A DNA stretch of 16,483 bases from a virus (Duplodnaviria; Heunggongvirae; Uroviricota; Caudoviricetes). Location: IMG/VR virus record IMGVR_UViG_3300012983_000313, positions 1 through 16,483 of that record. One strand, 5' to 3'. The notes below the pieces were generated by a model that was given only the letters and a program-made list of their open reading frames with translations, had not been told where the DNA came from and ran no database searches. A program made the translations under genes and the position numbers. How positions within the stretch are numbered: the stretch's first letter is position 1; every line of letters begins with the position of its first letter. Below are positions 751 to 16,271 of this stretch, piece after piece.

Positions 751-1043
751 CAGATTACGAAGACGATCAACTGAAAGAAGAAAACGCCCGTAAGCAACGT
801 GACATGGCGCAGCGTGAAATTGATGACATTCGCTTTGTCATGAGCAGTGAACAGGGGCGTCGCGTTGTCTGGTCTGTGCTGGAGAAAGGCCGGGTGTTTT
901 CCGCTATCTCTCCGATGGACGCTATGGCAATGGCATTTAATGAGGGGCAACGCAATCTGGCGCTGGAACTGTTTCAGCGCGTTATGGCGCATTGCCCTGA
1001 ACAGTATTTGAAGATGGCCAAAGAGGCCAGTGAACAGGAGTGA
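747..1043 (+). CDS. Small conserved head-module protein of unknown function (98 aa), between portal and scaffold
   Basis: ATG 747 overlaps the upstream stop (ATGA), indicating translational coupling. Charged, helical-looking protein. I have a vague recollection of a similarly placed small protein family in Bordetella phage BPP-1-like head modules, but cannot verify it. Confidence 0.5.
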   Translation: MTDYEDDQLKEENARKQRDMAQREIDDIRFVMSSEQGRRVVWSVLEKGRVFSAISPMDAMAMAFNEGQRNLALELFQRVMAHCPEQYLKMAKEASEQE

Positions 1044-1045
1044 TC

Positions 1046-1708
1046 ATGAATTTATTTGAGCGTTTGCTGTATCGCCGTCTTTGCAATGAGCAACCAGTCG
1101 ATGGTGGAGCAGCTCCGGCTGCGTCAGAACCGTCAGCGCCTGCAGGTGATAACCCTGCTCCAGTTGGTGATCCATCACAACAGGAAGGTGATAAGCCACA
1201 ACCTGTTGCTGATGGCGATAAGCAGGGTGAAAAAAAGGACGGCGATAAACCGGATGGTGCGCCGGAGAAGTACGAGTTTCAGGCTGCCGAAGGCGTAGAG
1301 CTGGATACAGAAGCGTTAAAGGAATTCGAGCCGGTGGCGCGAGAACTAAACCTGACCAACGAGCAAGCGCAAAAGCTGGTTGATGCTTATCCGAAGATTC
1401 TGGCAGGTGTTCAGCAGCGCCAGGCAGAAGCCTGGCAGAAAACAACCGAGCAGTGGGCTGCGGATGTAAAAGCTGACAAAGAAATCGGTGGCGACAAGTT
1501 GATTTCTAACCTTAGCGCCGCACAGCGTGCGCTTGACCAGTTCGGGACACCTGAACTCAAAGAATATCTGAACACCACCGGGCTGGGTAATCACCCTGAT
1601 CTGGTCAAAACGTTCGTGAAAATCGGAAAGGCGATGTCTGAAGATGGCATGGTCACCGGTGGTAATGAAGGCCAGCGTAGTGCGGCCGAAGTGCTCTATG
1701 GCAAATAA
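1046..1708 (+). CDS. Scaffolding protein (putative)
   Basis: ATG 1046 preceded by GGAG (1036-1039, 6 nt spacer); the ORF track's GTG at 1040 is less likely. Acidic Pro/Asp/Lys-rich N-terminal low-complexity region with GDK repeats, then a helical region. Located directly upstream of the major capsid gene, the canonical scaffold position. Confidence 0.55.
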   Translation: MNLFERLLYRRLCNEQPVDGGAAPAASEPSAPAGDNPAPVGDPSQQEGDKPQPVADGDKQGEKKDGDKPDGAPEKYEFQAAEGVELDTEALKEFEPVARELNLTNEQAQKLVDAYPKILAGVQQRQAEAWQKTTEQWAADVKADKEIGGDKLISNLSAAQRALDQFGTPELKEYLNTTGLGNHPDLVKTFVKIGKAMSEDGMVTGGNEGQRSAAEVLYGK

Positions 1709-1722
1709 GAGAGGAAATGACA

Positions 1723-2709
1723 ATGGCTGTTAAAGGCTTAACTGCGCTAACGCTGGCTGACTGGGGTAAGCGCGTCGATCCAAACGGGAAAGTCGATAAG
1801 ATTATCGAGCTTCTCGGTCAAACTAACCCGATCCTTCAGGATATGCCTTTTGTCGAAGGGAACCTTCCTACCGGACACCGAACCACCATTCGTTCTGGTT
1901 TACCTTCAGCTACCTGGCGTTTGCTGAACTATGGCGTACAGCCAAGTAAATCAACCACAGTGCAGGTAACCGATTCCGTTGGCATGCTGGAAACCTATGC
2001 TGAAGTCGATAAGTCACTGGCTGATCTTAACGGCAATACTGCCGAATTCCGCCTGTCTGAAGACCGCGCATTTATTGAAGCGATGAATCAGCAGATGGCG
2101 CAGACGCTGTTTTATGGTGATTCCAGCGTTAACCCTCAGCAGTTTATGGGACTGTCCTCCCGCTATTCCAGCCTGTCTGCGGGTAATGCTCAGAACATCA
2201 TTGATGCTGGTGGCACGGGTACAGATAACACCTCAATCTGGTTAGTGGTGTGGGGAGAAAACACCGTGCATGGCATCTTCCCGAAAGGGCAGAAGGCTGG
2301 CATCCAGATGGAAGATAAAGGCCAGGTGACACTGGAAGATGCTAATGGCGGCAAGTACGAAGGCTATCGCACCCATTACAAATGGGATAACGGACTTGCT
2401 CTGCGTGACTGGCGTTATGTTGTTCGCATTGCAAACATCGATGTCAGCAATCTTTCAGAACCTTCCTCTGCCGCAAATATTGCGAAGTTGATGGTTAAAG
2501 CACTGCATCGCATTCCAAACCGTGGCATGGGTCGCCCGGTGTTCTACATGAACCGCACTGTAGGCCAGGCTCTTGATCTGCAATCTCTGGAGAAAACATC
2601 TCTGGCGATCAGCGTAAAAGAGACAGAAGGCGAGTGGTGGACTTCATTCCGTGGTGTACCAATCCGTGAAACTGATGCGCTTCTGGAAACAGAAGCCCGC
2701 GTGGTGTAA
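1723..2709 (+). CDS. Major capsid protein (putative, about 328 aa)
   Basis: Largest head-region ORF directly after the scaffold. GAGGA (1710-1714) lies 8 nt before ATG 1723; ATG 1717 is also in frame but too close to the SD. Followed by a stem-loop at 2726-2745, as is common after highly expressed capsid genes. The sequence is not T7 gp10-like by eye; the size and context resemble the roughly 330-aa capsid proteins of BPP-1-type podoviruses (from memory). Confidence 0.65.
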   Translation: MAVKGLTALTLADWGKRVDPNGKVDKIIELLGQTNPILQDMPFVEGNLPTGHRTTIRSGLPSATWRLLNYGVQPSKSTTVQVTDSVGMLETYAEVDKSLADLNGNTAEFRLSEDRAFIEAMNQQMAQTLFYGDSSVNPQQFMGLSSRYSSLSAGNAQNIIDAGGTGTDNTSIWLVVWGENTVHGIFPKGQKAGIQMEDKGQVTLEDANGGKYEGYRTHYKWDNGLALRDWRYVVRIANIDVSNLSEPSSAANIAKLMVKALHRIPNRGMGRPVFYMNRTVGQALDLQSLEKTSLAISVKETEGEWWTSFRGVPIRETDALLETEARVV

Positions 2710-2725
2710 CGCCTGTTATTAACCT

Positions 2726-2745
2726 GTGGGTCGTAACAGACCCAC
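2726..2745 (+). promoter_or_regulatory. Stem-loop immediately downstream of the major capsid gene (possible attenuator or RNA-stability element)
   Basis: GTGGGTC-GTAACA-GACCCAC perfect 7-bp stem, 17 nt after the capsid stop. No U-tract follows, so it is unlikely to be a full terminator. Confidence 0.35.
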
Positions 2746-2760
2746 TAATGGAGAAAGAAG

Positions 2761-3198
2761 ATGATCACCGACAAACTGTTGATGTTCTCCGAAGCTCAGG
2801 CGGTTACGAATACCGCGGCTTCTACTGACGTAATCGATCTCGGTCCAATTGACGGAAAACATCGTGATATCGGCGTGGGTTACCCGCTTGAGTTTTGGGC
2901 GCTGGTTAACACAGCCGCCGCGGCAAGCGGTGATGCAACTGTAAACATCCAGTTGCAGACGAGTGAGAATAACAGCTCATGGACCACTATTTATGATAGT
3001 GGCGCACTGGCAAAGACCGCCCTGACAGCAGGTAAACGAGTTGTTTCTGCAAAGGTGCCTGCCGGTGTTCAGCGATATCTGCGTGTTAACTACTCCGTCG
3101 CAACTGGCCCACTAACGGCTGGCGAATTCACTGCTGGTATCAGTCTTGATGTTGATGCCAATACGCCGTATCCGATCCGCTCAAAAGTAACTGGTTAA
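2761..3198 (+). CDS. Hypothetical virion protein; possible capsid decoration/cement protein
   Basis: ATG 2761 preceded by GGAGAAAGAAG. 145 aa, Ala/Thr/Gly/Val-rich and beta-rich in composition. Lies immediately after the major capsid gene. Function inferred from position only. Confidence 0.4.
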   Translation: MITDKLLMFSEAQAVTNTAASTDVIDLGPIDGKHRDIGVGYPLEFWALVNTAAAASGDATVNIQLQTSENNSSWTTIYDSGALAKTALTAGKRVVSAKVPAGVQRYLRVNYSVATGPLTAGEFTAGISLDVDANTPYPIRSKVTG

Positions 3199-3208
3199 GG
3201 TGATATCG

Positions 3209-3544
3209 ATGTCAGGTGAGAAACCAAGATACCGCGTTCTGCGCCTCTCTCATATCCATAACACTCTGTGGCCGGAGGGGGCAGAAATCGAATACGAAGG
3301 TGAGCCTGGTAGCGCACTGGAACCTGTTAACGATGCAGCCAGACAGGCAAAAGCAAAAGTTGCAGGAAAGGTGTCAATGGCAGCAACCAGCACCAAAATC
3401 ATCAACGATGTGTCAGATGATGGTGAACTGGATAAGCTCCGTGAAGAGTACGAATTGCTCTTTAACGAGAAGCCACACCATAACGCCAAAGCCGAAACGC
3501 TCCGCGAGAAGATCGCAGATAAGCGTAAAGAACTGGGCGTGTAA
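3209..3544 (+). CDS. Hypothetical head/neck protein (111 aa)
   Basis: AGGTGA (3197-3202) lies 6 nt before ATG 3209; the ORF track's GTG at 3200 sits inside the SD. C-terminal half is strongly charged and helical (DELDKLREEYELLFNEK...). Followed by a terminator-like hairpin with a UUCG loop. Confidence 0.45.
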   Translation: MSGEKPRYRVLRLSHIHNTLWPEGAEIEYEGEPGSALEPVNDAARQAKAKVAGKVSMAATSTKIINDVSDDGELDKLREEYELLFNEKPHHNAKAETLREKIADKRKELGV

Positions 3545-3560
3545 GCCTCGCGAATCAGAC

Positions 3561-3584
3561 AAGGGGCTTCGGCCCCTTTATTGC
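3561..3584 (+). terminator. Terminator-like hairpin with UUCG tetraloop inside the late operon (probably partial/leaky)
   Basis: AAGGGGC-UUCG-GCCCCUU 7-bp stem followed by TATTG, 17 nt after the stop of the 111-aa gene. The next gene's SD follows directly, so read-through is expected. Confidence 0.4.
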
Positions 3585-3594
3585 AGGAGTGTAT

Positions 3595-3918
3595 ATGGAA
3601 CTCGTAAACCTCAAAACAGGCACTGACATCTACCAGGATGAGAGCGGAGAAACCAGAACTCGCGATGAATACCCGTGGGGGCTGTGCATCACGCTGAATA
3701 ACGACACATTGAATAAGCTGAAGGCGCAACCTCAGGGCGTCGGAACAGAAGTGATGATAACTGCAAAGGCTGTTATTCGAGGCCTGTCTGCCAGAGAAAC
3801 TGACGATGGTGTTAATCGCAGCGCCGATCTGCAGATCACTGATATGGCTATCGCTCCTGTTTCCGGTGATGTAGGAAAATCAGCGGCTGAAACTCTGTAC
3901 GGCAATGGGGGGGAGTAA
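3595..3918 (+). CDS. Hypothetical virion protein (107 aa) sharing a C-terminal SAAE[VT]LYG motif with the scaffold protein
   Basis: GGAG (3585-3588) lies 6 nt before ATG 3595. Stop TAA 3916-3918 overlaps the next ATG (TAATG). C-terminus ...GKSAAETLYGNGGE resembles the scaffold C-terminus ...QRSAAEVLYGK. Confidence 0.45.
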   Translation: MELVNLKTGTDIYQDESGETRTRDEYPWGLCITLNNDTLNKLKAQPQGVGTEVMITAKAVIRGLSARETDDGVNRSADLQITDMAIAPVSGDVGKSAAETLYGNGGE

Positions 3919-4523
3919 TGGCCTCTGTAGTAGAGATCTGCAATTGCGCGCTGTCCAATATTGGCAATAGCCGCAGCATTAACAGCCTGACGGAAGCCAG
4001 CAAGGAAGCGGGGGAATGTTCGCTGCACTTTGAGGCCTGCCGTGATGCTGTGCTTTCTGATTTTGACTGGAACTTTGCTACCAAACGCGTGGCGCTTGCA
4101 GATACGAGCAATCCACCGCCTGACTGGGAATATGCGTACCAGTACCCGTCCGATTGTCTGCGCATTACTGAAATTATGCTTCCTGGTGTACGCAATCCAG
4201 CAGCACCAATGCGCGTTCAGTACGAAGTTGGTGCAGACACCAACGGAACAGGAAAGTTGATCTACACAGACCAGCCTCAGGCATGGCTCAAGTATGTCTC
4301 TCGCGTTACAGATGTGAACATGTTTGATGCCATTTTTATGGAGGCGTTAGCCTGGCGTCTTGCGGCAGCTATTAACATGGCGCTGACTGGGAATGCAGAC
4401 CTCGGTACGTTTGCCCTCAATATGTACAATCGCGTGATTCTTAGTGCTGGCTCGCATAGCCAGAATGAATCACAGGAACCACAGCCACCGGTTGACGAGT
4501 TTACCATTGCGAGGTTGTCCTGA
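3918..4523 (+). CDS. Tail tubular protein A / adaptor (T7 gp11-like)
   Basis: 201 aa against 196 aa for T7 gp11. The N-terminal pattern (...ALSNIGNSRSINSLTE...FDWNF...) resembles T7 gp11 (...ILASIGEPPVSTLEG...RGWTFN...) as I recall it. Directly precedes a roughly 800-aa gp12-like gene with a TGATG overlap. Confidence 0.6.
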   Translation: MASVVEICNCALSNIGNSRSINSLTEASKEAGECSLHFEACRDAVLSDFDWNFATKRVALADTSNPPPDWEYAYQYPSDCLRITEIMLPGVRNPAAPMRVQYEVGADTNGTGKLIYTDQPQAWLKYVSRVTDVNMFDAIFMEALAWRLAAAINMALTGNADLGTFALNMYNRVILSAGSHSQNESQEPQPPVDEFTIARLS

Positions 4524-6988
4524 TGGCTATCAGTTGGATCCAGCCCAGCTTTGCCGGTGGTGAGATTGGACCGTCGTTGTACGGTCGTATCGACATGGCG
4601 AAGTACCAGGTGGCATTGCGCAAGTGCGATAACTTTATCGTGCGGCAGTATGGCGGCGTTGAGAATCGACCTGGTACGCGTTTTGTCGGTGCCGCCAAAT
4701 ACCCAAATCGGAAATGCCGCCTGATCCCGTTCCAGTTCTCGACGGTTCAGACTTATGCTCTGGAGTTCGGACACCAGTACATGCGCGTTATCAAAGATGG
4801 TGCGTTGGTGCTGAACAGCAGCAATGTTATTTATGAAATTGCCACGCCATATACTGAAGCCGATCTGTTCCGAATTAAATTCACGCAAAGCGCAGACGTG
4901 CTTACGCTGGTTCACCCGGCATACCCGCCGAAAGAGTTGCGCCGCTATGCGCATGACAACTGGCAACTGGTTGATGTGGTAACGAAGAACGGGCCATTTG
5001 AAGATATCAATATTGACGAGTCAGTGACGGTTTATGCCAGCGCCAGCACCGGGACAATTACGTTAACGGCAAGCGCCTCTATTTTTGGCGCGGAGCAGGT
5101 AGGCAAATTGTTCTATCTGGAACAGCCTGCAGTGGATTCTGTGCCGGTATGGGAAACCAGTAAGAGTACGTCGATTGGCGATATTCGCCGTGCAGACAGT
5201 AACTACTATCGCGCCGTTACAGCAGGCAAAACAGGTACTTTGCGCCCTTCGCATACAGAAGGCACATCATGGGATGGCTGGGGCGGATCCGGTGATGATG
5301 ATACTGGCATTGAGTGGGAATATCTGCACAGTGGTTTTGGCATTGCCCGTATCACTGCTGCAAATGGAACTACTGCAACTGCCGAGGTGATTTCCTATAT
5401 CCCTTCGCAGGTAGTTGGCGAGGATAATGCCAGCTATAAATGGGCTAAATATGCCTGGAACAGTGTTAATGGTTATCCTGGCACTGTTGTTTATTATCAA
5501 CAACGTCTTTACTTCGCCGCATCGACTGCGTTCCCTCAGACTATCTGGGCCAGCCGTACTGGGGATTATAAGGATTTTGGCAAAAGCAATCCTACGCAGG
5601 ATGATGACAGAATTATCTACACCTATGCCGGGCGTCAGGTTAATGAGATCCGTCACCTGATTGATGTTGGTTCGCTGGTGGCGCTGACTTCCGGAGGTGA
5701 GTACGTCATCACCGGCGACCAGAACAAAGTGTTAACCCCATCATCATTTGCATTCAGCTCTCAGGGATCAAATGGCTCAAGCAACGTCCCGCCAATTGCC
5801 GTGGCGAATATTGCTTTGTTCGTCCAGGAGAAAGGCAGCGTTGTCCGTGATCTGGCCTACTCATTCGATGTTGACGGCTATCAGGGGAACGACCTGACCA
5901 TCCTTGCCAATCATCTTTTTCAGAAGCACAGCATTGTTGACTGGTGCTTCTCGATTGTCCCTTACTCCAGCGCCTTCTGCATTCGTGATGACGGTAAATT
6001 ACTGGTGATGACCTATTTGCGTGATCAGCAGGTTTTTGCATGGGCACCACAATCCAGTACCGGAAAATATGAAAGCACATGCAGTATCAGCGAAGGCAAT
6101 GAAGATGCGGTGTATTTCGTCGTTAACCGAACCGTTAACGGGCAAACAGTGAGATACATCGAGCGACTGTCCAGCCGTTTATTTACCAGCGATGAAGATG
6201 CTTTCTTTGTTGATTCTGGCCTTAGCTATGATGGAAGAAATACGTCTGACAGAACGATGATCATCACTGGTGGTTCTGGCGAATGGGATTACCGCGCGGA
6301 ATATACAATCAGTGTTTCTGGTGGTGCGTACTTCACCAGTAGTGATGTCGGTGCTCAACTACAGTTCCCTTATACCGGAACTGATCCTGGCGATGAAGTG
6401 TCAAAAGAATTACGTTGCGACATCATTTCTGTAACCAGCAATACCGCTGTAGTGGTTCGTGCTAACAGGAACGTCCCGCCATCCCTCAGGAATGTGGCCA
6501 CCACGAACTGGCAGATGGCGCGCCGGACATTTGGCGGTTTGTCTCATCTTGAAGGTCAGACCGTAAACATCCTCTCTGATGCGAACGTGGAACCACAGAA
6601 AGTGGTTTCCGGAGGTGCCGTCACGCTGGAATCACCTGGGGCTGTAGTGCACATCGGCCTGCCAATAACTGCTGAATTCGAAACACTGGATATCAACATT
6701 AACGGACAGGAAACGCTGCTGGACAAAAAACAGGTGATCCCGTCCGTTACTCTGGTTGTGAATGCCAGTCGCGGCATCTTGGCTACTACGCCCGGCGGTA
6801 AATGGTACGAATATCCACAGCGTGAATTCGAGTTCTACGATGATCCTGTTGATGACGCTACCGGAAAAGTAGAAGTGAAACTGGACAGTAACTGGGGCAA
6901 AAACGGACGTGTAAGAATCCGTCAGCTTGACCCGTTGCCGCTGTCTGTTCTTGCCGTTATTCCTCGCCTTACTGTTGGGGGATTCTGA
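4523..6988 (+). CDS. Tail tubular protein B / nozzle (T7 gp12-like)
   Basis: 821 aa against 794 aa for T7 gp12. Sits in the gp11-gp12 synteny position. N-terminal GG-x-I...RPGT pattern is loosely like gp12. Start ATG 4523 overlaps the upstream stop; GAGG lies 8 nt upstream. Confidence 0.6.
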   Translation: MAISWIQPSFAGGEIGPSLYGRIDMAKYQVALRKCDNFIVRQYGGVENRPGTRFVGAAKYPNRKCRLIPFQFSTVQTYALEFGHQYMRVIKDGALVLNSSNVIYEIATPYTEADLFRIKFTQSADVLTLVHPAYPPKELRRYAHDNWQLVDVVTKNGPFEDINIDESVTVYASASTGTITLTASASIFGAEQVGKLFYLEQPAVDSVPVWETSKSTSIGDIRRADSNYYRAVTAGKTGTLRPSHTEGTSWDGWGGSGDDDTGIEWEYLHSGFGIARITAANGTTATAEVISYIPSQVVGEDNASYKWAKYAWNSVNGYPGTVVYYQQRLYFAASTAFPQTIWASRTGDYKDFGKSNPTQDDDRIIYTYAGRQVNEIRHLIDVGSLVALTSGGEYVITGDQNKVLTPSSFAFSSQGSNGSSNVPPIAVANIALFVQEKGSVVRDLAYSFDVDGYQGNDLTILANHLFQKHSIVDWCFSIVPYSSAFCIRDDGKLLVMTYLRDQQVFAWAPQSSTGKYESTCSISEGNEDAVYFVVNRTVNGQTVRYIERLSSRLFTSDEDAFFVDSGLSYDGRNTSDRTMIITGGSGEWDYRAEYTISVSGGAYFTSSDVGAQLQFPYTGTDPGDEVSKELRCDIISVTSNTAVVVRANRNVPPSLRNVATTNWQMARRTFGGLSHLEGQTVNILSDANVEPQKVVSGGAVTLESPGAVVHIGLPITAEFETLDININGQETLLDKKQVIPSVTLVVNASRGILATTPGGKWYEYPQREFEFYDDPVDDATGKVEVKLDSNWGKNGRVRIRQLDPLPLSVLAVIPRLTVGGF

Positions 6989-14795: not shown

Positions 14796-14990
14796 GGAAG
14801 TGTTTTGTTTTTAATTATTTTGAGTGTGATAATTTCTGGTGGGTTGTTATTTATTGACCGCTACAAATATTTTCTTAACCCTCAGACTCAAGCTATTTGC
14901 TGGTTCATCTTTGTTGTGCAGGGAATAGTTCTTGTTGCAAGCCTTATTGAGGGGAGGCCTCTGATTTTTACTGGGTAAATAGGTGACTAC

Positions 14991-15287
14991 ATGCAAGCGA
15001 TAGGATTCATTGTTTATATCGTCGTTGGTCTTTTTCAGTTGGCAGCAATTATGGCTGGGCTTGAATCATGGTGGGGATTGCACTGGATAATTGCAGCCCC
15101 CATTGCTTTCATCGTGAGCTATATTCCATTTGTTGGAGCGATTGTTGGTATGGTTGGCGCTGTGGATGTATGGCGGTGGGAGTGGTGGCAGGCTGGCCTT
15201 CTCTTCTTTGGTGGGATCATCTTTGTTATTGTCTGCGGTGGAATGTCATCATTTTTCGAATGGCTATCATTCAGAAAAGGGACGTGA
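14991..15287 (+). CDS. Small integral membrane protein (98 aa, about 3 TM helices, Trp-rich); moron-like, possible holin or exclusion-type protein
   Basis: AGGTGA (14981-14986) precedes ATG 14991. Three long hydrophobic segments (residues about 4-24, 31-58, 66-85) and a WRWEWWQ motif. Separated from the phage operon by a 195-bp AT-rich gap and followed by its own intrinsic terminator. Confidence 0.5.
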   Translation: MQAIGFIVYIVVGLFQLAAIMAGLESWWGLHWIIAAPIAFIVSYIPFVGAIVGMVGAVDVWRWEWWQAGLLFFGGIIFVIVCGGMSSFFEWLSFRKGT

Positions 15288-15551: not shown

Positions 15552-15572
15552 AAAAAAGCCCGCAGTGCGGGC
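15552..15572 (-). terminator. Rho-independent terminator of the minus-strand two-gene cassette
   Basis: On the minus strand: GCCCGC-ACU-GCGGGC perfect 6-bp GC stem followed by UUUUUUGUGG (A-tract 15552-15557 on the + strand). Starts at the TAG stop of the 181-aa gene. Confidence 0.65.
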
Positions 15573-16117
15573 TATTCCTTCCATTTATCAGAAAAAAGAT
15601 CTTCTTCTAAAGGCATTGGTTTTGTTTTTGTTTTCTCAAAGAATTGATAACTGATAGTGATTGCTGCCTCTTTAAACTCTTCTTGCTCAGTTATGTTGTG
15701 AGCATCTGCGTCAACAAAAAACATAACCAGCGCATCACGATTGTGATTTACCGAATAAACTAAAAAGCAATCACTTGTTGGTATGCATTTTACTTGTACA
15801 GACGCTATATTTTTCCATGCATCCCAGGATGATTTTTTACCAGTGTGTTTTTTATCACTATCTTCTGGAATATAGTCTTGGTTATCGACATGAGTATGCC
15901 TGACATTTAGTTTAAGCATTTCTGTCGGACGAGCAAATGCGGCATCTTTACCAAGAGATGGATGGTATCCCGTTTTCCAATACTGGGTAAATGCATCAGA
16001 TACTTTCTTCAGCTCAAGATCAGATGCACAAAGGGCCGAGAAATTTTGCGTATGCAATACTCGACCCTTATATCTGACAATTTGATTTTTATCATTCTGC
16101 GACGCAGACAAACTCAT
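15572..16117 (-). CDS. Hypothetical cargo protein (181 aa); candidate toxin or defence effector
   Basis: Minus-strand ATG at 16117 preceded by AAGGA, 7 nt upstream; the ORF track's longer version from 16144 lacks an SD. AT-rich: about 36% GC in a hand-counted 120-nt sample, against about 50% in a sample of the phage genes. Terminated by a strong intrinsic terminator. C-terminal segment SDCFLVYSVNHNRDALVMFFVDADAH is loosely reminiscent of RelE/ParE-type toxin cores, unconfirmed. Confidence 0.55.
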   Translation of the reverse strand: MSLSASQNDKNQIVRYKGRVLHTQNFSALCASDLELKKVSDAFTQYWKTGYHPSLGKDAAFARPTEMLKLNVRHTHVDNQDYIPEDSDKKHTGKKSSWDAWKNIASVQVKCIPTSDCFLVYSVNHNRDALVMFFVDADAHNITEQEEFKEAAITISYQFFEKTKTKPMPLEEDLFSDKWKE

Positions 16118-16271
16118 AATTTTCCTTATTGTTACGAGAATCAAAGAAAGCGCTGGATACGCGACTTGCGTGATCTTTTGTCATAGTAACTTTTACGTAC
16201 TCTACGCTTCCATTGAAAGAACGTCTTGCGGCAGCTTGCGCTCTACGCATCTGCAATTTTTCGTTTCGCAT
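16092..16271 (-). CDS. Small basic protein (59 aa) overlapping the start of the 181-aa gene; candidate antitoxin or regulator
   Basis: Minus-strand ATG at 16271 preceded by GAGGT (5-6 nt spacer). Translates to MRNEKLQMRRAQAAARRSFNGSVEYVKVTMTKDHASRVSSAFFDSRNNKENYEFVCVAE. Its 3' end overlaps the downstream gene by 26 nt out of frame. Below the ORF-track length cutoff, so not listed there. Confidence 0.35.
   Translation of the reverse strand: MRNEKLQMRRAQAAARRSFNGSVEYVKVTMTKDHASRVSSAFFDSRNNKENYEFVCVAE

Follow-up and report, generated by a model that had tools for sequence, protein, structure and literature searches.

The C-terminal end of the phage P22 scaffold is its coat-binding element and contacts the N-arm of the coat protein. 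In phage lambda (C and Nu3) and in herpesviruses (UL26 and UL26.5), a second protein gains the coat-binding C terminus of the scaffold and with it passage into the procapsid, and in encapsulin cargo loading various proteins are brought to the inner face of an HK97-fold shell by one short conserved peptide at the C-terminal end of a flexible linker. The closest precedent for the locus described here comes from phage 80alpha, whose scaffolding protein and the otherwise unrelated CpmB protein of SaPI1 have in common a C-terminal helix-and-hook with an RIIK motif (PMC5644958; PDB 6B0X and 6B23). The 80alpha/CpmB peptide comprises ~16 residues, a short amphipathic helix plus a few residues, and its site in the procapsid is formed by the N-arm helix and the A/P cleft of the HK97-fold coat protein, for which the two proteins compete (PMC5644958).

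We analyzed a stretch of 16,483 nucleotides of viral DNA (the window), which is the head module of an epsilon15/phiV10-like podophage and in which all features named below lie on the + strand. A scaffolding protein of 220 amino acids (1046..1708), homologous to epsilon15 gp6 and BPP-1 Bbp18, is encoded directly 5′ of the gene for the major capsid protein (1717..2709; GP7 family, BPP-1 topology; Pfam PF20911, E 2e-149), as in every related locus examined. These are followed by a Bbp16-type jellyroll cement protein (2761..3198; Pfam PF21190, E 5e-47), a gp9-like protein of 111 amino acids (3209..3544; phrog_590), a small protein of 107 amino acids (3595..3918) that belongs to the Gp10-like family PF21628 and bears the NCBI name 'capsid staple protein', and the adaptor, tail tubular protein A (3918..4523; phrog_394), whose ATG overlaps the small-protein stop codon (TAATG). 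The start codons that fit the homologues of the scaffold and the small protein are ATG 1046 and ATG 3595, as opposed to the upstream GTGs of the open-reading-frame list. Just 5′ of the small-protein gene is a GC-rich hairpin (3561..3578) with a UUCG loop followed by UAUU (RNA fold −16.9 kcal/mol, z = −1.5), which may be a weak terminator or attenuator; a simple terminator scan did not flag it, and the epsilon15 record has a rho-independent terminator annotated at the equivalent position. The scaffold and small-protein genes are separate, lying 1.9 kb apart in the window and 0.4–2 kb apart across related phages, with variable order: the small-protein gene is directly 5′ of the adaptor gene in the window, directly 3′ of the portal gene in BPP-1, BcepC6B, Jess A and many metagenomic loci, and 5′ of the portal gene in CP2.

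A sequence-only reading of this DNA had noticed that these two proteins end in the same motif, and translation confirms it. Nucleotides 1679–1702 encode SAAEVLYG, residues 212–219 of the 220-residue scaffold, which ends ...GQRSAAEVLYGK (RSAAEVLYGK), and nucleotides 3880–3903 encode SAAETLYG, residues 96–103 of the 107-amino-acid protein, whose C-terminal end is ...GKSAAETLYGNGGE. Seven of the eight residues are identical, while the encoding DNA is identical at 15 of 24 bases; the codons for Ser (AGT or TCA), Ala, Leu and Tyr all differ. Where tail residues are identical, the same codon is used in 128 of 275 cases, compared with 111 expected from codon usage, and the earlier claim of protein-level conservation rather than recent DNA duplication thus stands. 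Shuffling the residues of the 14 real window proteins produced a seven-of-eight match within the C-terminal 16 residues in 1 of 3000 shuffles and a match anywhere in 64 of 300, so the significance of the match rests on its C-terminal position and not on the match alone.

Each motif is carried on a flexible linker. In the scaffold, GMVTGGNEGQR leads into the putative docking tail SAAEVLYGK (1646..1705), and in the small protein the linker leads into the tail KSAAETLYGNGGE (3859..3915). The AF2 model of the scaffold, with a mean pLDDT of only 59, is disordered over residues 1–71 and has an all-helical core at 88–200 (six helices over 88–218), a low-pLDDT linker at 201–212 and a short helix at 213–218 that covers AAEVLY. 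In the small-protein model, a beta-rich core that includes a long hairpin (53–88) is followed by a disordered linker at 89–96 (pLDDT below 50 at residues 92–96) and a helix at 97–102. Both models therefore place a short terminal helix over AAE[VT]LY after a disordered linker; both proteins are also strongly acidic, with a pI of ~4.5.

The likeness to 80alpha and CpmB lies in a C-terminal, predicted-helical peptide that is common to a scaffold and a small second protein. The differences are that CpmB comes from a parasitic island that hijacks the phage, whereas both proteins here are the phage's own; that the motif sequences are unrelated (A-x-x-L-Y-G here, RIIK there); that the small protein has its beta-rich core and no helical dimerization domain; and that binding and competition have been demonstrated for 80alpha, whereas we only infer them here. 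The P22 element is a ~40-residue helix-turn-helix with basic residues, in contrast to a peptide of ~10 residues centered on Leu-Tyr that is common to a second protein. Like encapsulin cargo, the phage proteins combine a folded domain, a disordered linker and a short conserved peptide, but the two are unrelated in sequence, encapsulins assemble without a scaffold and usually enclose an enzyme as cargo, and loading of the small protein is conjectural. For lambda C/Nu3 and UL26/UL26.5, the shared end comes from in-frame overlapping genes and is identical in DNA. We rejected a nested-gene origin of this type for the window, where the genes are 1.9 kb apart and the motifs differ at nine of 24 bases, and where the second protein is not a protease.

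The tail is retained in nearly all full-length homologues of both proteins. In the small-protein family, which comprises 3457 clusters at 50% identity, it was present in 132 of 137 representatives that were mutually <50% identical, and residues L101 and Y102 were invariant in 69 homologues. The tail tyrosine is invariant in both cross-lineage alignments (Tyr218 in the scaffold), and the motif on its flexible linker takes the form A-x-x-[LMF]-[YF]-[G/P] in both families, with Ala(−4) found in 49 of 54 unique small-protein tails and 43 of 47 unique scaffold tails. The resemblance is specific, in that across 80 loci 37 of the 80 small proteins resembled the scaffold tail of their own genome, as opposed to 2 of 11618 other ORF segments. 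The phages Ab31, Nsp-JY18, Ab9 and AF, in which the small protein was undetectable, retain the scaffold tail, which therefore has a role independent of the small protein. The peptide occurs twice in tandem in some small proteins, and some lineages have an extra C-terminal module. We found no description of the scaffold-like tail of the Gp10-like family in the literature that we searched.

The two tails also change in parallel from one genome to the next. In the order scaffold and small protein, they read SAAEVLYG and SAAETLYG in the window phage, SAFYPKK and DAFYPDG in epsilon15, ARRLYAASNMNP and AQRLYGASSMSA in BPP-1, RAAKLY and RAAKFY in BcepC6B, NRMYPD and ARMYAD in CP2, ADLLYPS and ADLLYPS in the genome L143, and AQRMYPNMNP and AQRMYANSNMNP in L137, and they match in most of 80 genomes. 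Flank identity, scored without the conserved hydrophobic-Tyr pair, was 2.85 within a genome and 1.66 between clades (p ≤ 2e-5 by permutation over 19–20 clades, which are not fully independent), and in 1489 of 3192 ordered genome pairs the two tails of one genome were more alike than either was to its own orthologue. Co-conservation in orthologues, which the sequence-only reading had named as its own check, is therefore strongly positive, with tails that are conserved and that co-vary genome by genome.

What the tails vary with is the capsid cassette. Between the window and epsilon15, the flanking portal (C-terminal part), adaptor (gp11) and nozzle proteins are 80%, 84% and 88% identical, respectively, and the C-terminal half of the scaffold body is ~85–95% identical, whereas the scaffold tail is identical at 6 of 18 residues and the capsid protein, cement protein, gp9 and small protein at 43%, 34%, 40% and 41%. 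Nucleotide identity falls at ~1630–1690 and recovers at ~3905; the diverging cassette spans the scaffold tail to the small-protein stop codon and contains the gp9-like gene, with the adaptor gene as a conserved flank outside it. The genomes L099 and L137 provide the second of only two independent mosaic events. From the portal through the scaffold body they are 85–98% identical in DNA apart from two islands, one being the small-protein tail and the other comprising the scaffold tail and the capsid gene (46% amino acid identity). The small-protein core and the scaffold body are 92% and 88% identical and the portal is ~90% identical in DNA, yet both tails change from RLY to RMY, so that the small-protein tail, a lone patch of divergence, changed together with a capsid gene that lies 1 kb from it.

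Across 666 pairs of genomes, identity in both tails was predicted best by the capsid-protein identity of the pair. For the scaffold tail the partial correlation was higher with the capsid protein (0.63) than with the scaffold body (0.41), as it was for the small-protein tail (0.44 with the capsid protein and 0.16 with the small-protein body); each tail tracks the capsid protein better than it tracks the body of the protein that carries it. The capsid region that best tracked tail divergence was the N-arm (residues 10–32), weakly (partial r 0.25). The cement protein and gp9 share the divergent cassette with the capsid protein, and comparative data alone do not separate the three as partner. Several lineages have DNA runs common to both tails, such as CGGCTGTACGCA in both tails of L099, and the tail island of L137 contains clustered synonymous and non-synonymous changes. 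Together with the slightly raised codon sharing, this clustering suggests that recombination or conversion of patches helps to keep the tails matched.

These comparisons reveal a real peptide that is conserved in both families, changes in parallel in each genome, is specific to the two proteins and is co-inherited with the capsid cassette. Because both tails travel with the cassette and not with their own bodies, the alignments suggest that both may use one docking site on the coat protein. The explanation that we favor, with moderate confidence, is that the C-terminal peptide common to the two proteins serves to dock them at the capsid shell, the target most probably being the major capsid protein of the procapsid, and that the small protein carries a copy that takes it to the same site, as an accessory assembly factor or cargo and not as an external staple. 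The core of the peptide, Ala(−4)-x-x-Leu/Met/Phe(−1)-Tyr/Phe(0)-Gly/Pro(+1), would form a short amphipathic helix on its flexible linker. The scaffold tail would hold coat subunits during assembly, and the linker-borne copy of the 107-amino-acid Gp10-like protein would direct that protein to the scaffold site, where it would share or compete for scaffold sites. The choice of the capsid protein as partner, over the other proteins of the cassette, is one part of this inference, as are binding inside the procapsid and the activity of the small protein once docked.

The small protein could instead be an external staple or decoration whose tail touches the surface of the mature capsid, a coat-binding peptide being re-used outside the shell. 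Its relatives carry this label: it matches PF21628 across profile positions 1–98 of 98 (E 3.4e-50), phrog_825 (E 2e-56) and chain N of PDB 3J40 (E 9.5e-21), in which epsilon15 gp10, a clear sequence homologue, is modeled as the staple. The sequence-only reading had missed both this family and the fact that the assignment had already been questioned. Epsilon15 gp10 was also 'putatively identified' in particles by proteomics, and a tail that follows the capsid cassette would be expected of an external binder too. However, the AF2 model of the 111-amino-acid gp10 misfits the staple density, whereas the 130-amino-acid epsilon15 homologue of Bbp16 fits it (Hryc and Baker 2022), and in the maps of BPP-1 (3.5 Å) and PhiXacm4-11 (3.16 Å) the capsid protein and the Bbp16-type cement protein suffice to explain the shell, with Bbp16 and its homologue modeled as cement dimers. 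The AF2 model of the 107-amino-acid protein, which had no structural relative in the PDB, is a long hairpin and not a jellyroll, and the Gp10-like family is missing from several relatives that retain a Bbp16-type gene. The staple function attached to the name of gp10 is therefore doubtful, the name 'capsid staple' is probably wrong for the 107-amino-acid protein, the Bbp16-type protein (2761..3198) is the probable external staple, and an external role for the small protein is unlikely. Evidence for its presence in virions conflicts between epsilon15 particles and BPP-1, in whose virions it is not a major band. No extra peptide density has been reported in the high-resolution mature capsids of BPP-1 and PhiXacm4-11, implying that the tail, if it binds, does so transiently or without icosahedral order.

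A partner at the vertex, with the scaffold tail recruiting the portal or another conserved vertex component and the small protein using the same site, seems to us improbable. Scaffold–portal contacts are known in P22, the small-protein gene adjoins the portal or adaptor gene in many phages, and between L099 and L137 the small-protein core shares the conservation of the portal and not the divergence of the capsid protein. But both tails differ between those two genomes in spite of portals that are ~90% identical in DNA, the tails are fully changed between the window and epsilon15 in spite of the well-conserved portal and adaptor, and tail identity follows that of the capsid protein.

We give similarly little credence to contacts of the tails with one another or with the scaffold body, in which case the small protein would be a scaffold partner or regulator that, for example, caps or releases the scaffold. 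Homotypic contact would likewise produce matched tails in each genome, the acidity of both proteins is in its favor, and the tandem copies in some small proteins would suit multivalent association. It is at odds with the retention of the tail by scaffolds of phages that lack the small protein, with the closer correlation of the scaffold tail to the capsid protein than to the scaffold body, and with the change of both tails between L099 and L137 while the scaffold body stayed 88% identical.

C-terminal tags commonly address proteins to proteases, and the scaffold, which matches phrog_458, belongs to a family that databases widely label 'protease' or 'peptidase', so the tails might mark both proteins for one processing or quality-control factor, for instance a protease of head maturation or of the host, or a chaperone. 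We rejected the scaffold itself as a prohead protease: it had no family match in Pfam (none above threshold) or NCBIfam and no match in the PDB with either the single sequence or a cross-lineage profile, its predicted fold is all-helical, and the AF2 model is that of a scaffolding-class protein, elongated, helical or disordered, and without an enzymatic fold. No protease family was detectable in any head-module protein, and the BPP-1 authors found the capsid and cement proteins uncleaved. Moreover, epsilon15 and phiV10-type phages infect closely related enteric hosts, yet their tails differ, in line with the phage capsid cassette, which suggests that the co-varying partner is encoded by the phage. 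A processing tag is thus highly unlikely. The interpretation offered by the sequence-only reading is partly supported: its co-conservation and protein-level likeness hold, its common docking site on the coat gains indirect support, and its alternative of a common maturation factor is disfavored.

Tail likeness without shared function, through occasional gene conversion between short stretches or as a relic of an old duplication, would fit the slight shared-codon excess, the common DNA runs of lineages such as L099 and the patch-like island of L137, but is very improbable given how few bases the window motifs share, a motif kept over 3457 clusters with an invariant aromatic residue, matching that persists despite widely varying gene order and distance, and the inability of conversion to keep tails matched to the capsid cassette without selection.

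If the peptide does dock at the capsid shell, a broader and more tentative idea, possible though less likely than the docking role itself, is that the epsilon15/BPP-1 group of phages uses a portable address peptide for the capsid, such that the last ~10 residues of the scaffold, attached through a flexible linker, would bring any protein to the inner face of the procapsid, with the Gp10-like family as the natural cargo. Such a peptide would explain how epsilon15 gp10 can be found in particles yet fit no ordered density, and tandem peptides or the extra C-terminal module would be a hint that docking peptides form a small modular code in head assembly. Encapsulin cargo loading would then have a counterpart, and possibly an evolutionary forerunner, among viruses.

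The 16.5-kb window represents the structural module of an Escherichia podophage of the phiV10/TL-2011b type (genus Uetakevirus, epsilon15 group), and from position 1000 to 4600 it was 97–99% identical to 14 phage records of this type. On the plus strand its genes begin with the 3′ end of the portal gene (115–750), followed by a Bbp19-like gene (747–1043), the gene for the 220-amino-acid scaffold (1046–1708), that for the GP7-family major capsid protein (1717–2709), that for a Bbp16-type protein (2761–3198), a gp9-like gene encoding 111 amino acids (3209–3544), and the gene for the 107-amino-acid small protein (3595–3918), with tail tubular proteins A and B and then internal virion proteins encoded downstream of 3918. 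The sequence-only reading had noted that the scaffold and small protein end in nearly the same octapeptide, encoded with different codons, and on each count it was correct: nucleotides 1679–1702 encode SAAEVLYG and nucleotides 3880–3903 encode SAAETLYG, each motif falls a few residues from the C terminus, and the two coding stretches have 15 of 24 bases in common. Shuffling produced a seven-of-eight match somewhere in the window's proteins fairly often (64 of 300 shuffles), but within the C-terminal 16 residues in only 1 of 3000 shuffles. The i, i+3, i+4 spacing places Ala, Leu, and Tyr on a single face of a helix, and the AlphaFold2 (AF2) models of the two proteins are alike in having a folded domain, a low-confidence linker, and a short terminal helix over AAE[VT]LY.

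The small-protein gene has three alternative locations across lineages (ahead of the adaptor gene, or on either side of the portal gene), and in the window its stop codon overlaps the adaptor start codon (TAATG, 3916–3920), which suggests translational coupling of the two proteins. Two GC-rich hairpins, one in the intergenic region after the capsid gene (2726–2745; −14.2 kcal/mol, z = −2.5) and one just 5′ of the small-protein gene (3561–3578; a UUCG loop and then UAUU, −16.9 kcal/mol, z = −1.5), may lower expression of the genes downstream of them; the epsilon15 record has a terminator annotated at the place equivalent to the second, and a simple terminator scan of the window flagged neither. 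After the last large internal virion protein gene, two very hydrophobic ORFs without a Pfam match (14805–14978, 57 amino acids; 14991–15287, 98 amino acids) may encode membrane proteins, for example for lysis or host modification. Where the GC content of the window is lowest (44% versus ~51%), a 190-amino-acid ORF on the minus strand (15572–16144) gave a hit to Pfam PF13957, the YafO family of type II toxins (25.7 bits, cut-off 25; E 1e-5), and is probably a phage cargo gene ('moron'); a 59-amino-acid ORF on the same strand (16092–16271), which overlaps it and lies upstream of it, might be its antitoxin.

Co-conservation of the shared C-terminal peptide, hereafter the tail, held up in the homologue sets that we examined, in which it was a family feature of both proteins. 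An exhaustive profile search gave 3457 clusters (50% identity) for the small-protein family, and a hydrophobic-aromatic motif followed the last strand in 132 of the 137 best full-length representatives; enteric homologues ended in K[ST]AA[EDQ]TLYG. Among the best 120 scaffold homologues, nearly all had an RSAAEVLYG-type C terminus, the clear exception being the epsilon15-type SAFYPKK tail. When 54 unique small-protein tails and 47 unique scaffold tails were numbered from the conserved Tyr as position 0, the shared core consisted of Ala at −4 (49 of 54 and 43 of 47, respectively), Leu, Met, or Phe at −1, Tyr at 0 (all 54 small-protein tails and 43 scaffold tails, with Phe in the other 4), and Gly, Pro, Ser, or Ala at +1. 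An apparent loss of the Tyr from the small protein in one group of loci (L096/L106) was rejected, as the canonical motif is present there and is followed by an extra C-terminal module. Such an arrangement, with the canonical motif (e.g., NDRASKLYGN) and then a second module, was found in several lineages (loci L096, L101, L106, L109, and L145; L087, L102, L121, L147, and L151). One form of the module, RAINNLQS[ST][LM]LGG, is similar to the ...TLLGG end of the gp3-like protein, and the other is a second copy of the putative docking peptide (SRINNLSNALYGGG), which in L121 is closer than the first copy to the scaffold tail (GLANALYSNQQN).

The gp3-like protein is a small protein encoded directly 5′ of the portal gene (epsilon15 gp3, L081:2333–2539), and in nearly every lineage it has a strongly conserved C-terminal pattern, ...S(T)MLTG...(8–12 residues)...LGK(S/N)TLLG[GQSA], which ends at the stop codon. 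Its ORFs were seen at ~40 related loci (e.g., L082:5831–6238, L171:1968–2222, and L173:2740–2955) and fall outside the window, whose start is inside the portal gene. Because this pattern, unlike the scaffold tail, is invariant between lineages, it probably addresses a different, conserved partner.

Locus searches with a single protein returned near-identical relatives only, and the scaffold and small protein were paired at 80 loci, from annotated phages and 80 divergent viral contigs. Outside the common core, the flanks of the tails were lineage-specific and matched within each genome. For example, the scaffold tail DLISAFYPKK of epsilon15 is paired with the small-protein tail LKDAFYPDGEDD, DARRLYAASNMNP of BPP-1 with AAQRLYGASSMSA, ARAAKLYDKS of BcepC6B with QRAAKFYANTPTT, WNRMYPDM of CP2 with YARMYADDPSMKD, TADLLYPSSSSK of locus L143 with AADLLYPSK, VAQRMYPNMNP of locus L137 with IAQRMYANSNMNP, and DRVSLLYPNDKTA of Vibrio phage 1.021.A with DRAEQLYGPKS. 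In a permutation test in which genomes were collapsed to 19–20 clades and the conserved hydrophobic-Tyr pair was left out, flank identity was 2.85 within a genome versus 1.66 between clades (p ≤ 2e-5 with both anchoring schemes, values that overstate independence, as the clades share ancestry). The tails of a single genome resembled each other more than either resembled its orthologue in the other genome in 1489 of 3192 ordered pairs, which is the mark of concerted change rather than of independent descent. This tail is also specific to the two proteins: 37 of 80 small proteins resembled the scaffold tail of their own genome, whereas only 2 of 11618 other ORF segments at these loci did so by that measure, both of them probably non-coding frames.

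Identical residues of the two tails used the same codon in 128 of 275 cases, against 111 expected, so the match is kept mainly at the protein level, as had been proposed from the window, where 9 of the 24 bases differ; patch recombination perhaps helps occasionally to keep the tails matched. One protein, P0228, seemed to join a phiV10-type scaffold to an epsilon15-type tail, but its contig is simply epsilon15-like and encodes a gp10 with the matching FYP tail.

Three lines of evidence point to a coupling of the tails to the capsid-shell cassette, away from the portal or the phage's tail. In the comparison of the window with epsilon15, the C-terminal part of the portal (80%), the adaptor (84%), the nozzle (88%), and the C-terminal half of the scaffold body (about 85–95%) were conserved, whereas the scaffold tail (6 of 18 residues), capsid protein (43%), cement protein (34%), gp9 (40%), and small protein (41%) were divergent. 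Nucleotide identity dropped at ~1630–1690, inside the scaffold gene just before the linker and tail, and came back up at 3905, at the small-protein stop codon, which places the scaffold tail, small protein, and capsid protein in one exchange unit. The cement protein and gp9 lie within the same divergent cassette as the capsid protein, and either is a possible partner of the tails. A second, independent pair of loci, L099 and L137, has the BPP-1 gene order (portal, small protein, Bbp19, scaffold, capsid) and 85–98% DNA identity from the portal through the scaffold body, with two exceptions only: an isolated 100-bp island over the small-protein tail (67–72% identity), and the scaffold tail running on into the capsid gene (46% protein identity). 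In both tails of this pair RLY gave way to RMY, and residues following the Tyr changed in parallel too; because ~1 kb of conserved DNA lies between the small-protein tail and the capsid gene, this is not accounted for by simple linkage.

The same association with the capsid protein was found over 666 genome pairs. Identity of the scaffold tail correlated more closely with that of the capsid protein (r 0.77, partial r 0.63) than with that of its own scaffold body (r 0.66, partial r 0.41), and for the small-protein tail the partial correlation was 0.44 with the capsid protein versus 0.16 with its own core. When capsid proteins were at least 85% identical, the 8-residue motif differed at 1.5 positions in the scaffold and 2.3 in the small protein; when capsid proteins were <60% but scaffold bodies at least 75% identical, the differences were 6.4 and 6.3, values that represent two independent events only. 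In a mirror-tree scan of the capsid protein, the N-arm (residues 10–32) tracked the tails best, albeit weakly (partial r 0.25). The mosaic cases, although two in number, are sturdier evidence than the permutation tests. The small-protein core itself does not track the capsid protein, as it is 92% identical between L099 and L137, compared to 46% for the capsid protein; this core may contact something conserved such as the portal, as suggested by the small-protein gene often adjoining the portal or adaptor gene.

Some relatives retain the scaffold tail without a detectable small protein (Pseudomonas phage Ab31, AERMYPNYPA; Nostoc phage Nsp-JY18, EERLYGKTT...; Acinetobacter phage Ab9, LDAFYGK; Pseudomonas phage AF, EAVLWPTMQQQ), which indicates that the tail belongs in the first place to the scaffold, and the small protein appears to be an accessory with a copy of it. 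The Ab9 adaptor (tail tubular protein A, L176:7392–7955) ends in ...FESQLYGAR and the Ab9 scaffold in ...KLDAFYGK; adaptors of the other phages examined had no such tail-like end, and the likeness may be a coincidence.

The scaffold is labelled 'protease', 'endoprotease', or 'peptidase' in many records, a label that in the epsilon15 record originates from similarity to a 'putative endoprotease' of Salmonella LT2. No protease family was detected in Pfam, NCBIfam, or the PDB, also when a profile built across lineages was used; the PDB returned nothing meaningful for either the scaffold sequence or the profile, and none of the five head proteins tested had an NCBIfam model. Because no protease family, fold, or solved relative was detected, this annotation looks like an inherited error. 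The AF2 model of the scaffold (mean pLDDT 59) has a disordered N-terminal third and then helices only, and this architecture, together with a position directly 5′ of the capsid gene, fits a scaffolding protein.

The small protein belongs to the Gp10-like family (Pfam PF21628, E 3e-50; epsilon15 gp10 in PDB 3J40, E 1e-20), which NCBI names 'capsid staple protein'. This name is probably a misnomer, as judged from two capsid maps and a re-examination of a third. In BPP-1 at 3.5 Å, the external two-fold cement dimers are formed by the jellyroll protein of Bbp16 type, whose gene directly follows that of the capsid protein (PMC3863775); in the CP2-like phage PhiXacm4-11 at 3.16 Å, they are likewise a Bbp16-type protein, and the Gp10-like homologue (gp18), given no label beyond hypothetical protein, is absent from the structural model. 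When Hryc and Baker looked at epsilon15 again with AlphaFold2, the staple assignment was questioned by its own authors. The real external cement or 'staple' is thus probably the Bbp16-type protein (2761–3198 in the window), and the doubted assignment appears to have been passed on by the gp10 chains of PDB 3J40, the Pfam description 'Major coat protein-like', and the NCBI name. Evidence on the presence of the small protein in virions conflicts: epsilon15 gp10 was, according to a second-hand statement, 'putatively identified' in particles, whereas in BPP-1 the small protein was not a major band, and a literature search for proteomics of relatives yielded nothing useful. In two metagenome proteins from the homologue search, P0020 (141 amino acids) and P0116 (159 amino acids), a ClpP-protease segment (Pfam PF00574) is fused to part of the small protein, with P0116 ending in the small protein's last 30 residues, tail included; their source contigs are short (1–2 kb), and they are probably assembly chimeras.

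From a sequence pattern whose co-variation, specificity, and linkage to the capsid cassette are shown here, we infer that the tail acts in the procapsid as a short helical peptide that docks onto the capsid protein. Through it the scaffold would engage coat subunits, and the small protein, by displaying the same peptide on a flexible tether, could reach the same site, where it would act either as a co-assembled accessory factor or cargo or as a competitor of the scaffold. Comparable mechanisms operate in encapsulins, through cargo-loading peptides, and in lambda and the herpesviruses, through nested scaffold/protease genes. The closest established precedent for a scaffold's coat-docking end in a second protein is that of the 80alpha scaffold and SaPI1 CpmB, which have a common C-terminal helix-and-hook and compete for one coat-protein site formed by the N-arm and the A/P cleft (PMC5644958). 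No extra peptide density was reported in the high-resolution mature capsids of BPP-1 and PhiXacm4-11, which fits a site that is used in the procapsid and that, once the shell has expanded, is lost or disordered.

It is already known that the coat-docking end of a scaffold can recur in a second protein. What is new here is that both tail-bearing proteins are phage-encoded, as separate genes, that the pattern extends across a very large family, that the tails, on sequence comparison, demonstrably co-vary with the capsid cassette, and that all this bears on a family whose present name is probably wrong; a literature search found no description of a scaffold-like tail in the Gp10-like family and no discussion of Bbp18 or Bbp20. 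The results provide a likely role for this large, misnamed family and a probable coat-binding element for a widespread scaffold family called a protease in databases. If the tail is a true addressing signal, the peptide could serve to bring foreign proteins into these capsids, of which that of BPP-1 has already been proposed as a display platform. The two tails would also illustrate cleanly, and with particular clarity in the L099/L137 island, how in nature a short linear motif and its receptor co-evolve in mosaic phage genomes.
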